Shown: one piece after another, positions 2,567 through 37,224 of the stretch | Layout: each line of letters opens with the position of its first letter | How positions within the stretch are numbered: the first letter of the stretch is position 1 | IMG/VR virus record: IMGVR_UViG_2778261009_000005 | Location: 1 to 43,253 of that record | Length of the DNA stretch: 43,253 nucleotides | Source of the DNA: a virus | Taxonomy: Duplodnaviria; Heunggongvirae; Uroviricota; Caudoviricetes | Reading direction: 5' to 3' (one strand) | The notes under the pieces: model-generated | Databases searched by the model: none | What the model was told of the DNA's origin: nothing | What the model saw: the letters and a program-made list of their open reading frames with translations, nothing else | Translations under genes and position numbers: made by a program

Positions 2567-2583
2567 CAATCAATTAGAGCAAT
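2567..2583 (-). promoter_or_regulatory. C1 operator-like site with adjacent extended -10 (TGcTATAAT, minus strand at 2560-2568)
   Basis: Minus strand ATTGCTCTAATTGATTG, 14/17 match to the P1 operator consensus ATTGCTCTAATAAATTT. Confidence 0.55.
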
Positions 2584-2690
2584 GGTAGATATTTTGTTAA
2601 TCGCGAATCACATTTTTTCACTTCAGTACCTGTGTGCTATACTCCTTCTTGATTGATTGGATGCGGAATACAAACCCGCTCTTTTGTGCA

Positions 2691-2717
2691 GCCTGGCTCC
2701 TTGCCAGGCTTTTTTTA
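2691..2717 (+). terminator. Intrinsic terminator (plus strand)
   Basis: GCCTGG-ctccttg-CCAGGC followed by T7 (tttttttattt). Confidence 0.6.
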
Positions 2718-3026
2718 TTTCATCATGGAAGCTGTTAACGCTTTGGATCTTGCTGAACTGATTGAAAGGGCATTGTTTACCTTACCCAGGAGTTCGCCAA
2801 ATTCCACCATCACTCTAGTAAGCCCGCGCCGCGCTTCCTCCTCCGTTGCATTCATCACAAAATGTTCAGCACTCCGCATGCTTTTAACGGGGAACGCAAC
2901 AGATATCGAGTCGATATCAGGCATCCTATCGCTCAACTTTACGGTGACAATGACAGATGGTGACTGAATTTGAGAGCTTACAGACAGCACCACATATTTT
3001 CCGTCTATTTTGAAATCCTTCCGCAT
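2715..3026 (-). CDS. Hypothetical protein between cre and ref (cra position)
   Basis: 103-aa ORF preceded by a C1-operator-like site; no recognisable motif. Confidence 0.3.
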   Translation of the reverse strand: MRKDFKIDGKYVVLSVSSQIQSPSVIVTVKLSDRMPDIDSISVAFPVKSMRSAEHFVMNATEEEARRGLTRVMVEFGELLGKVNNALSISSARSKALTASMMK

Positions 3027-3042
3027 GTGTCACCATAAATAT

Positions 3043-3059
3043 CAAATAATTAGAGCAAT
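3043..3059 (-). promoter_or_regulatory. C1 operator-like site
   Basis: Minus strand ATTGCTCTAATTATTTG, 14/17 match to consensus. Confidence 0.5.
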
Positions 3060-3076
3060 CAGTTGCAAATAAACGG

Positions 3077-33266: not shown

Positions 33267-33920
33267 ACTTGCCGGGTACGTCTCCGGCGAGGGCTTCCAC
33301 CTCCGTATGCTTTTCGGCGCACCGCGCCCTGGCTGCAATTCGGTAACAGGGGATGCACAACCCTGGCTTCCAGCGTGATTAGCGCCTTCAGCATGACGGG
33401 ATATACCCGTAGTAGGACGTTATCTTCAAATTGCTAAAAGCAATTGCTGTTACGCAGAATGAAAAAGGACGTAACAGGTAAGGACGCTGACCAAAAAGAT
33501 GGCCTCTTCTCGCTCATCTGGTTAATCGAACCAGCGCCCTTACCTGTTGTGCCTCCCCGTTCCCTAATACACAGACGGGGACACTCTGCGGTCGATTTTT
33601 TGACGGGGGACGACTCATACCCCGTGGCGTCTGGCTTCTTAGGCCGCTACCATCATCAGATCATCGTTTGCATTTACTTTAATGGTCAGTTTATAAACCG
33701 CCGCAAAGTCGCTAACCATGACGAAAACCCTGAAAAAACGCCCACCCGAAGATGGGCAAACTGGAAGCTCGTAACGCACTTCGGCGTTGCCACTTAGGCG
33801 CATGGTCAACCTGGCAACTCGGTGGTTTGTCTGGGAGGACTAGGCCCAGCCATGCTTACCGCCGCGCCTGTCGCGGCTAACAGCTAAATCGCTCTATAAA
33901 TCACGATTCATTGAGGCGAT

Positions 33921-33948
33921 ATTACACTAATAAATTTATTAGAGCAAT
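33921..33948. promoter_or_regulatory. Two overlapping C1 operator-like sites forming a near-palindrome (Op72-like, ban operon)
   Basis: ATTACACTAATAAATTTATTAGAGCAAT: a 15/17 site and a 17/17 site sharing the central AAATTT. Confidence 0.65.
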
Positions 33949-35957
33949 ATACCTAAAACGTCATGAGCTACACCTCGAGTGTCCCCCTTACAAGACACAG
34001 AACGTCTGGCAAAAAGAGGTTCCACTCTGAAGCCATTGTCATGATAAAGCTCTCTGATGTTTGGCGCGCCACTATTAGTAATGAGAACCTTTGCACCTCG
34101 GCGATGAGCATCCGTCAACAGAGACACCAGGCGTTTTTGCTCTTCAAACTTAAAGTCATGACCGGAATAGTTCGTGAATCCCTCTGTATTTGGAAGCGGT
34201 TCATATGGCGGATCGCAAAAAATGACATCTCCTTCTCCGGCAGCTTCAATCACCGCAGCAAAATCACCACATACAAACTCAGAACGACCTTCCGCACCGA
34301 GGAAGGCTTCCATCTCCTGTAATGGGAAATACGGAGTTTTATACTTCCCATAACCGACATTGAACTCACCGGCCTGGTTGTAACGCGTCAATCCGTTAAA
34401 ACAATGTCGGTTCAGGAACAAAAACGCCGCTGCGCGATGTAAATCATCATAGACTTGTTTGTTAAACGCATTCCGTACTGCTAGGTATCCTTCCTGTGTG
34501 TTGTAGTCCTGGAAAAACCGATGCGCCAGAGTGATAAGTGAACGTTCCTCACGTTGCAAAGTCTTGTAAAAGTTAATCAGGTCAGCATTCACATCATTTA
34601 GCAGATTTTCCTTGTATCCGGCATTCATGAAGACAGCTCCGCCACCGACAAAAGGTTCAATCAGGCGCTTCCCTTCTGGCAAATAGCGAAAGATTTGTTC
34701 CAGAACACCAAATTTTCCACCAGCCCATTTGAATATGGACCGTTCGAATTCTGCCGCTGGTTTAACTTTTCGCTCTTTTGTTTCATTCCCTTCATTCTGC
34801 CGACATGCAGCCTTGGTAATCCGATCGCCAATCCAGCGCATTACTGGTATCGCCATACTATTGCCGATCGCTTTGTAACGCGGTCCGTCAGCTGCAAGCA
34901 TCGCGGCCTCTTCTTCGCTCAAATCAGGATAGTTTTTGCGAAGGTATGCCAGTTCATCTGAAGAAACTTTTTTACGCTTTTCCGTAGGGATCAATGTATG
35001 TCCATCAGGAAAACCTTGCAGCCTTTCACATTCGACAGGGGTAAGACGGCGCATTCTACCGTCGCCGAGCAATACAATTGGTGCTTCATGGTTACATGTC
35101 AAAGTTGGTGCCGAATTATCGGTTTTTATCTCAGCCCCTCCTTGCCCATGTGCCATGGCAATTATGTTTGTATCATCGCAAGTTCTGATAGCGATGTTTG
35201 AAGTATATCTGGTAGTTTCCTTCCCCTCGCCTCTGCTCGGCGCAATATTCCGGCGCACGCCTTCGAACTCAAAAAGTACCGTTGCGGGATCGAGGTCTGT
35301 TCGAGCACTTGCGACAACAAACACGCGTCGGCGTCGTTGTGCCACTCCGAAGTATTGGGCATCAAGGATTCTCCAGGCCACTTTTCGCTGCGGTCCATAA
35401 ATACAACCACACTGCGGCCACTTTGGAGCATGGCAACCGGTTTTGACATCCCACCGCCAGAACGCGTTACTTTTTCCTGATTCAGGTCGATCACCTGGTT
35501 CGAATGGCGCATCTTCTCCAGCCAATCCGGCAAGGAAACATCCGAAGGCGTTATCTGCCGATGACAAGACTCCTGGGACATTTTCCCAGACGATAACTGC
35601 TGGTTTGAGAAATGACTCAGCCCGTTTGTCGTCAATTGCATTTGCAAGCTCCACATACTTTAAAGTTAGCGCGCCACGCTCATCATCAAGCCCACCACCT
35701 AATCCCGCGATACTGAATGCCTGACAAGGTGTTCCCCCGACGAGCACATCAGGGGATTCGATTTCCCCAGCCAGGACTTTTTTGGCAAGTTTTGTCATGT
35801 CGCCAAGGTTGGCGACATGGGGCCAGCGGTGCGCAAGAACGGCTGATGGAAAAGGCTCGATTTCAGCAAACCACGCCGGACGCATACCCAACGGTTCCCA
35901 GGCCATACTCGCGGCTTCAATTCCACTGCAAACAGATCCATAGCACAGCTCTTTCAC
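33939..35957 (-). CDS. dmt: Bifunctional DNA methyltransferase: N-terminal C5-cytosine MTase domain fused to C-terminal Dam-like N6-adenine MTase domain
   Basis: 672-aa ORF; C5 motifs GGTPCQ, ENV, QRRR, GNS in the N-half; Dam-type EPFVGGGAV and DPPY in the C-half. Confidence 0.85.
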
Positions 35958-36859
35958 TGCTTAGCCTCTCCGCCAAGGGCATTTACCAGAGCATCAACCA
36001 GGCACGAAATTTCACTGGTCAACAGGAAGAAATCTGCGTCCAGTCGCTGCGCAACATCTTCACTATCAATATCAGAGTTCTGCTCAAGCAATTCATCCGC
36101 AAATTTGACGCTGGTAAGGCTGAAGTTATGGTCCAGTGTAAATTTAATGCGGTTCTGCCAGTCGATTGCCAACTTAGTGACGAGCTTGCCAGCTTCCAGG
36201 TGTGTGGAAATTTCATCGCTTCCCAAATCCTGCTTTTTCACTCGGGCAATACCGCCATCCTCAAGCACTGCCTTAAGTTCTGCCGCATCCCCCATTTGAA
36301 ATCCCTGTGGAGCACTACCATCACGTACCCAGTCGGTCAGCGTTAATTCAATGGGATTTTCAACACTCAGGGGAACAACAGGAAGAGAACCCAGAGACTT
36401 ACGCATAAGCGCGAGCATATCTTCTGCCTGCCGCGCGCTGGCATTGATATAGATACGTTTAGTTGAACCGTCGTAGATCGCCTGGATAACAGAAAACTTT
36501 GAAAAAGCCCGTGGAAGAAGAGAATGCAGAACTTCGTCTTTCAGGGAGTCCTTCTCTGTTTTCTTCAGTTTACGCGCTTGTTCTTGCTCAAGTTTTTCAA
36601 TTTTTTCTTGAATAGCTCGCTGGATAACCGGCGGGGGAAGAATTTTTGTTTCGCGCTTTGCTTCAACAAGGATAAAACCATTTCCATGCATAGCGATAAC
36701 TTCGGAATTATCACCAAATGGCGATACAAAACCGAACTTGGCCATATCCTGACTACCGCATGGCGTGAAAAGGATCATTTTCTTTTTATCTTCTAAGTCG
36801 GTCAGATCCGCCTCACGAGAAAGTTTATAAATAGTAATGTTTTTCCAGTGCTTAAACAT
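35954..36859 (-). CDS. rdgC: RdgC-like recombination-associated protein
   Basis: About 301 aa from ATG at 36857-36859 ([16 protein letters not shown]...); [35 protein letters not shown] and [14 protein letters not shown] match E. coli RdgC as remembered; track ORF 35954..36973 has an upstream alternative start. Confidence 0.75.
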
Positions 36860-37136
36860 GTTGTAACCCTTGAATATCAACCACAGAAAGCTCGTCTTTG
36901 TAGAAAAAGGCCAGGTTGTGGCACCCCCTCGTTTGAGCGTATGAGCTGGGACCAATTTCGTTCTTCCAGACAAATGGCTTCAAATCCGTACGGCGAAGCA
37001 TAAAAACGCGATTTGTTCCGCTCTGATTCCCAATGAGGCAAAAGCCTTCTTTCACCTTGATAGCCTGCAAGTTGTCGAGTTCACCGCTGGTTACACGGCT
37101 ATCGAACTCCTTGCGGCTTATTAGCTCCATCTGCAT
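36852..37136 (-). CDS. Hypothetical small protein, first gene of the C1-controlled dmt operon
   Basis: ORF in track 36852..37208; internal ATG at 37134-37136 with GGAG ribosome-binding site preferred because the TTG at 37208 overlaps the operator. Confidence 0.35.
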
Positions 37137-37207
37137 CTGACGACTCCAAACAAATGCCCATTGAAGGGCGATGGCTGAATGGTACCGAAAACACGACATA
37201 AAAAACA

Positions 37208-37224
37208 ATATTTATTAGAGCAAT
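37208..37224 (-). promoter_or_regulatory. C1 operator-like site upstream of the dmt operon
   Basis: Minus strand ATTGCTCTAATAAATAT, 16/17 match. Confidence 0.6.

Follow-up and report, generated by a model that had tools for sequence, protein, structure and literature searches.

Layout of the window

The stretch of DNA analysed here, referred to as the window, comprises the 43,253 nucleotides of IMG/VR record IMGVR_UViG_2778261009_000005, and all coordinates refer to it unless stated otherwise. Megablast against phage records identifies it as a P1-like phage-plasmid (Punavirus) in the reverse orientation to the P1 reference, with P1 and P7 collinear to it at 96–99% identity. It contains the gene of the immunity repressor C1 and thirteen short sites for which an original prediction, made from the letters alone, had proposed a role as C1 operators. 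Our results indicate that these sites are almost certainly the operators, scattered along a P1-like phage-plasmid, at which its immunity repressor C1 acts. Twelve of them are the operators already described for P1, while the thirteenth, upstream of c8, is a candidate operator. The features and the layout, which was obtained by local blastn against three stretches of P1 AF234172, are collected in Table 1.

The operator motif

All thirteen sites are present where the prediction had placed them, with zero to three mismatches to the 17-mer ATTGCTCTAATAAATTT, so that each matches 14–17 of the 17 positions, and ten of them contain the exact core ATTGCTCTAAT. When up to three mismatches are allowed, the 17-mer finds 14 matches in the window against 0.28 expected, and none of 100 shuffles reaches 14. 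The earlier count of ten 11-bp cores against about 0.02 expected is true for ATTGCTCTAAT, a count that again no shuffle of 100 reaches; an alternative core, TGCTCTAATAA, occurs seven times in the window. The fourteenth match, at 6911–6927 (TTTGCTCGTATAAATTT, in the pacB open reading frame (ORF)), was rejected as a chance hit, as it is without the core and its weight-matrix score of 7.4 is at noise level.

We then scored the window with a weight matrix trained on 16 annotated P1 operators. The thirteen sites score 20.1–28.0, the next is the annotated operator Oc1c at 15.5, and everything else remains at or below 12.4. Block-shuffled sequences gave a mean maximum of 12.2 and a 95th percentile of 15.9, which the thirteen sites exceed by 4–12 bits. 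Weaker matches (29372, 16050, 37724, 33428 and others) all lie under the shuffled 95th percentile and were discarded. The extra match at 6911 and these weak matches at noise level could suggest that the whole set consists of chance occurrences in AT-rich intergenic DNA, an explanation that is refuted by the shuffles, none of which attains the observed counts, and by the weight-matrix scan; we regard it as next to inconceivable.

Twelve of the thirteen sites are positional orthologues of annotated P1 operators and coincide with features labelled "protein_bind, phage repressor C1" in AF234172; eleven are identical in sequence, and OpmgRa differs by 1 nt. The promoters flanking the operators are nearly unchanged as well (0–7 mismatches to P1 within ±80 nt), and the cognate c1 gene is intact. 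The proposal that the sites are C1 operators of a P1-type regulon thus agrees with the reference annotation, and the motif set is the classical, already known C1 regulon of P1. As a description of the regulon, the list of thirteen is incomplete: all of its members exist, but the annotated Oc1c, Oc1b and Oppp were missed because they are too degenerate for a three-mismatch search, and one member, the site at 3043, has no operator annotation. Operators do lie ahead of the genes that had been described as of unknown function, but these genes already have names in P1. The 72-aa/420-aa operon corresponds to pmgR/pmgS and the dmt operon to uhr-hrdC-dmt behind Odmt/Op68; the "peptide ORF" is located in the leader that follows OpmgT/Op88.

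Table 1 Features of the window: C1 operators, genes, insertions and correspondence with P1 (AF234172).
Feature	Position	Strand	Remarks
Oref (former Op1/Op2a)	2567..2583	-	identical to AF234172 1962-1978; between -35 and -10 of P2ref
Candidate Oc8	3043..3059	-	ATTGCTCTAATTATTTG; between cre stop (3077) and c8 ATG (3026), in c8 orientation
Oc1e (former Op99e)	4604..4620	-	identical to P1; adjoins P4cre
Oc1d (former Op99d)	4687..4703	+	identical to P1; between -35 and -10 of P1coi; controls imcBA-coi-c1
Oc1c (former Op99c)	4979..4995	+	in coi; identical to P1; 5 mismatches to consensus; score 15.5
Oc1ab (former Op99ab), bivalent	5151..5178		over -35 of Pc1; identical to P1
Oc1a (former Op99a)	5151-5167	+	in the original prediction
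Oc1b (former Op99b), degenerate	5162-5178	-	identical to P1; not in the original prediction
Olpa (former Op94)	9426..9442	-	identical to P1; overlaps -35 of Plpa
OpmgT (former Op88)	17728..17744	-	identical to P1; over -35 boxes of P1pmgT and P2pmgT
OpmgRb (former Op86b)	19820..19836	+	identical to P1
Hairpin, 32 nt	19837..19868		AAAACGTGATGAGTGTACATCACGTTTT; between the two Op86 operators; T runs on flanks
OpmgRa (former Op86a)	19869..19885	-	position 17 A, C in P1; over -35 of PpmgR
Oppp (former Op83), weakened	22586..22602	+	TATGTACTAATTAATTT, P1 CATGCACTAATTAATTT; score 9.1 (noise)
O26 (former Op82)	23493..23509	+	identical to P1, 0 mismatches within ±80 nt; divergent pmgL / gene 26 control region
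Obanab (former Op72ab), bivalent	33921..33948		covers P1ban; identical to P1; controls ban operon
Obanb (former Op72b)	33921-33937	+
Obana (former Op72a)	33932-33948	-
Odmt (former Op68)	37208..37224	-	identical to P1; abuts -35 of Pdmt; controls uhr-hrdC-dmt
c1, repressor, 283 aa	5262..6113	+	intact; 281/283 identical to P1 C1.100
coi, C1 inactivator, 69 aa	4942..5151	+	ORF unchanged; neighbouring sequence identical to P1
lpa, activator of late promoters	8903-9355	-	ORF; controlled by Olpa
pmgR	19587-19805	-	controlled by OpmgRa
pmgS	18323-19585	-	controlled by OpmgRa; family match
Resolvase	477-1070		in left non-P1 block
Class A beta-lactamase, 286 aa	1253-2113		in left non-P1 block
Tn3-family end	about 2260		inverted repeat GGGGTCTGACGCTCAGTGGA; inserted in ref at P1 coordinate 2283
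hsdM	11477-13039	+	type I restriction-modification cassette
hsdS	13036-14241	+	type I restriction-modification cassette
hsdR	14363-17479	+	type I restriction-modification cassette
Small hydrophobic ORF, 44 aa (28 aa from internal ATG)	17559-17693	-	directly behind OpmgT promoters
Non-P1 block	1-2260
5' part of ref, c8, cre, cra, half of lox	2261-4542		P1 2283..2
immC, c1, pacB, pacA, lpa, pdcB, pdcA, doc, phd	4546-11376		P1 94798..87970
Non-P1 block, type I hsd	11377-17554
P1-matching stretch	17555-31110		P1 84482..70922
Variant stretch	31111-32773
P1-matching stretch	32774-35051		P1 69841..67564
P1-matching stretch	35236-40884		P1 67133..61484
P7-like stretch	40885-43253

Placement at promoters and paired operators

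With the P1 annotation transferred to the window, operators lie close to P2ref, P4cre, P1coi, Pc1, Plpa, P1/P2pmgT, PpmgR, P1pmgL, P1ban and Pdmt. Three kinds of placement can be distinguished. In the first, operator positions 2–7 form or abut the -35 hexamer (P4cre, Plpa, P2pmgT, PpmgR, P1pmgL, Pdmt); in the second, the operator is placed between -35 and -10 (P1coi, P2ref); in the third, a bivalent operator extends over part or all of the promoter, covering the -35 of Pc1 and the entire P1ban. Because of these three annotated placements, promoter occlusion is the mechanism that we propose below.

The same placements raise the question of whether the repeats could be shared promoter modules, or some other repeated sequence, rather than repressor-binding sites, since positions 2–7 (TTGCTC) are often the annotated -35 and TGCTCTAAT resembles an extended -10. 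However, the conserved unit is 11–17 bp long and its position relative to the promoters varies, as it is found over the -35, between the hexamers, within coi and in overlapping inverted pairs. Furthermore, both the P1 record and PMC8546580 give these sequences as C1 operators defined by experiment, and consensus copies titrate C1, which makes this explanation very improbable.

The three paired loci that had been pointed out correspond to the annotated Oc1e/Oc1d in immC, OpmgRb/OpmgRa and the bivalent Obanab, and their geometry is as described: the sites at 4604 (-) and 4687 (+) are divergent, those at 19820 (+) and 19869 (-) are convergent, and those at 33921 (+) and 33932 (-) overlap by 6 bp. 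The hairpin bracketed by the convergent pair is likewise real, with a folding energy of -30.4 kcal/mol and z = -4.9, none of 200 shuffles folding as well. It is terminator-like and stands behind pmgQ, and its stem is extended by the inverted operators. Oc1a and Oc1b add a fourth paired locus. The bivalent type, in which inverted 17-mers with an 11-nt offset and a 6-bp overlap lie over a promoter, occurs at 33921/33932 and 5151/5162, both identical to P1.

Oppp, annotated as monovalent in P1, is followed in the window by a weak inverted half-site at 22597–22613 (CTTAAAATAATAAATTA), whose score of 12.4 is noise. The offset of 11 nt is the one seen in Oc1ab and Obanab, and the resulting 28-mer resembles Oc1ab (xATGCACTAATxAATxTATTATTTT). 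Since the score is at noise level, this resemblance may be a coincidence.

The repressor and the proposed mechanism

The C1 protein of the window is 99.3–99.6% identical to C1 of P1, P7, RCS47 and SJ46. It is predicted to be interchangeable with C1 of P7 and other Punavirus phage-plasmids (99.3% identical). A Pfam search gave no family for either C1 (5262–6113) or C8 (2715–3026), which match only PHROG families of unknown function (phrog_1678 and phrog_1968), and C1 has no sequence match among solved structures. Thus, the fold with which C1 reads an asymmetric 17-bp site is without a match in the resources searched.

Previous work on P1 provides the functional background. The P1 genome contains 22 dispersed C1 operators with the asymmetric 17-bp consensus ATTGCTCTAATAAATTT, and C1 represses repL and lpa among others (PMC8546580). 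Coi inactivates C1, whereas Lxc strengthens its binding through a ternary complex, and C1 activity is titrated in vivo by consensus copies supplied on a plasmid (PMC8546580). Upon C1 inactivation, ssb, dmt, kilA, ban and ref are induced as measured by RT-qPCR (PMC4713147). For P1 sites with the same sequences, physical C1 binding and C1-dependent repression are on record (PMC8546580, PMC4713147). Earlier footprinting work on P1 describes C1-dependent protection of the sites. Oc1e may control cra and cre, as stated in the P1 record (AF234172).

On this basis we propose that C1 encoded at 5262–6113 recognises the asymmetric 17-bp sequence in the window. As the majority of the operators lie on or next to the -35 or -10 hexamer of a sigma-70 promoter, bound C1 would exclude RNA polymerase from early and lytic promoters in the lysogen. 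The promoters occluded in this way would be those of ref, cre/cra (P4cre), coi-c1, c1 itself, lpa, the pmgT leader, pmgR-pmgS, the pmgL/26 region and the ban and dmt operons, so that one repressor would act by promoter occlusion at about a dozen scattered transcription units. Repression of lpa by C1 would in addition silence all of the late genes indirectly. Coi (4942–5151) would relieve the repression, and the co-repressor Lxc, encoded outside the window, would strengthen it.

Our identification of the sites is founded on their agreement with the P1 operators in sequence and position, the over-representation of the motif and the intact repressor gene; what is said of C1 binding, of promoter occlusion and of the action of Lxc and Coi comes from established work on P1. 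Several points weigh against it. C1 binding and repression at the sites of this particular element would be properties carried over from P1. In the P1 record itself, Op82, Op83, Op86b and most of the flanking promoters are labelled "predicted". Oppp has two substitutions, one of them at the otherwise invariant C5, and scores at noise level; for these reasons it may be non-functional in this element, and it appears to be decaying. Finally, the genes usually under OpmgT are absent and hsd genes stand in their place, and part of the P1 regulon has therefore been rewired.

The likeness to P1 extends to the 17-bp consensus, the positions and orientations of the operators, the flanking promoters and the repressor. 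P1 differs in that Oppp is intact, OpmgT faces pmgT-pmgU-pmgV and the site at c8 is an unannotated C7-to-A variant. P7, RCS47, SJ46 and the E. coli P1-like plasmids in PLSDB share the backbone of the window; P7 differs in the position of its Tn3 in ref, and the lox spacer of the window is unusual. In phage lambda, CI with OR and OL is likewise a single immunity repressor that silences the lytic promoters, autoregulates and uses multiple sites with looping, and P1 C1 is alike in this respect. The lambda operators are symmetric, read by dimers and clustered at two loci. The P1 operators, on the other hand, are asymmetric, are spread genome-wide over about a dozen transcription units and are modulated by Lxc, Coi and Ant (PMC8546580), and P1 C1 is, in our searches, without a Pfam family or a sequence match to a solved structure.

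These results indicate that a P1-like phage-plasmid carrying antibiotic resistance retains the complete textbook C1 immunity circuit, and they identify the transcription units expected to be silenced in the lysogen. Beyond a correct annotation, the importance of this finding is small.

A candidate operator upstream of c8

The site at 3043 is the sole item of this analysis outside the textbook annotation. It has no counterpart feature in the P1, P7 and phiW39 records, although it may be mentioned in literature text. Its weight-matrix score of 21.9 is higher than those of Oref, Olpa and OpmgRb, and all 17 of its bases have a precedent at the corresponding position of one or more annotated operators. 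At this place P1 and P7 carry ATTGCTATAATTATTTG (P1 1485–1501), which has A for C at position 7. C7 is present in 15 of the 16 annotated operators, the exception being the degenerate Oc1b, and the P1/P7 variant reads as an extended -10 (TGnTATAAT).

To follow the site in relatives we used 96 P1-like IMG/VR contigs anchored in the 3' end of cre alone, which leaves the site itself unselected. The core is perfect in 86 of the 96 contigs, while six have the P1 variant and four have other single changes; the majority variant is ATTGCTCTAATTCTTTG. The spacer that separates the site from the cre stop is variable, with a mean majority-base frequency of 0.73 and 24 variants among the 48 distinct sequences. 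Mean conservation is 0.99 for the core, 0.90 for positions 12–17 and 0.94 for the first 60 nt of the c8 coding sequence. The pattern of a fixed core, free positions 12–14 and a TTG end is that of Oref in the same contigs.

A more distant relative, the Cronobacter phage JK004 (C1 77%, Cre 79% and C8 50% identical), has a longer, unalignable spacer between cre and c8. Within it, and likewise oriented, lies ATTGCTCTAATAATTTA, which matches 15/17 positions and has a perfect core. A sigma-70 promoter (10/12) directed into c8 has its -10 overlapped by this site. JK004 also repeats the immC layout, with two divergent sites separated by 84 nt and with counterparts of Oc1a and Olpa.

Taken together, these comparisons lean towards the site at 3043 being a real C1 operator, with a probability somewhere between even and fairly good. 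We give about an even chance to the fuller proposal that it is a genuine unannotated operator, "Oc8", ancestral to P1-like phages, which would place c8 and cre read-through into c8 and ref under C1 control. P1 and P7 would then belong to a minority (about 6%) in which the C7-to-A change destroyed an invariant position and created an extended -10. Oc8 may occlude a c8 promoter, as the arrangement in JK004 suggests, or alternatively it may block read-through from the cre promoters into c8 and ref; P1cre, P2cre and P3cre are without an annotated C1 operator in the P1 record, and a simple scan of the window detected no terminator that would separate cre from c8.

Other observations argue against an operator at 3043. 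A simple scan of the window found no promoter overlapping the site, the conservation does not stop at the end of the 17-mer but reaches the ATG, and in about 10% of the relatives the core is lost although the remaining operators are retained. In the covariation test, the relatives with a variant core gave no signal of co-evolution; since they leave their other operators unchanged, the variant cores are best read as isolated losses.

These observations also count in favour of a rival reading, in which the site is conserved as part of the signals for c8 expression, either a promoter -10 or a translation initiation region, with an incidental likeness to the core; the other twelve sites would stay operators. 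We hold this to be possible but rather doubtful. In its favour, the site is not annotated in P1, P7 or phiW39, and P1 and P7 carry there the extended -10 ATTGCTATAAT, which is also the -10 of P2ref beside Oref. An operator alone does not account for a conserved block that reaches the ATG (TTTGATATTTATG, 0.99). On the other hand, the TCTAAT of the window is without the critical A at -11 of a -10 hexamer, the score and the composition of the site are those of annotated operators, and its fixed and variable positions in relatives mirror Oref. JK004, with its unalignable spacer and divergent C8, nevertheless keeps a perfect-core site at the same place. RNA structure does not explain the conservation either: a hairpin or terminator as its cause was considered and is unsupported (z = 0.04).

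If the operator assignment is correct, c8 regulation in the textbook phages P1 and P7 would be atypical for the group. With a likely c8 operator, which is conserved in P1-like elements but mutated in both reference phages, P1 and P7, the regulon would grow by one gene.

As a separate observation, ATTGCTATAAT differs from the operator core by A in place of C7. Besides its occurrence at the c8 site of P1 and P7, it is found in the window directly after Oref at 2554–2570 (-), where it supplies the -10 of P2ref. A single base change would interconvert the operator core and this extended -10.

Insertions and changes relative to P1

At the left edge, ref is cut after about codon 68 by the Tn3-family end at 2261, which leaves a 71-aa Ref stub still behind Oref. 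Because the transposon interrupts ref at the window edge, Omat lies beyond it and outside the window. P7 also has a Tn3 in ref, but at a different position from the Tn3-family/bla insertion of the window.

The hsd cassette, whose hsdR encodes an EcoR124-type C-terminal domain, replaces P1 humD, lxr, hot, upfO-M, pmgV, pmgU and pmgT. The P1 record points to a similarity of the flanks to the surroundings of the EcoDXXI and R124 hsd loci (AF234172). The Op88 promoter has thus lost its pmgT-pmgV cargo to hsd in this lineage and is now antisense to hsdR. The only ORF left between the OpmgT promoters and the 3' end of the convergent hsdR is the small hydrophobic ORF at 17559–17693. In its 28-aa form (MNTAFKIIMAAIYFWLFSITFGGIVAHG) a GGAG Shine-Dalgarno-like motif precedes the ATG, and the ORF is kept in P1, where it is unannotated. 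Plasmids from animal and human E. coli that are 99.4% identical over 2261–20000, the hsd cassette included, are common in PLSDB.

In immC, substitutions at 4860–4861 replace the imcA stop codon, so that imcA and imcB form one 75-aa ORF (4749–4976, +) upstream of coi.

The lox site (4527–4560) has canonical 13-bp arms and an unusual spacer, ATGAACGC on the + strand as compared with ATGTATGC in loxP, a difference of two substitutions. Among 62 IMG/VR relatives with a detectable lox, the spacer is canonical in 60 and none has the version of the window, and of the 703 PLSDB records that contain the lox region, not one exceeds 97.3% identity over 4490–4600. As Cre needs identical spacers, the lox of the window would be heterospecific with loxP, although a sequencing error is also possible.

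In the right part of the window, tciA-C/upl/plp of P1 are swapped for the variant segment at 31111–32773, which contains a 275-aa ORF (31254–32081, -). The dmt ORF (33939–35957) encodes 672 aa as compared with 754 aa in P1, with the divergence located at 35052–35235.

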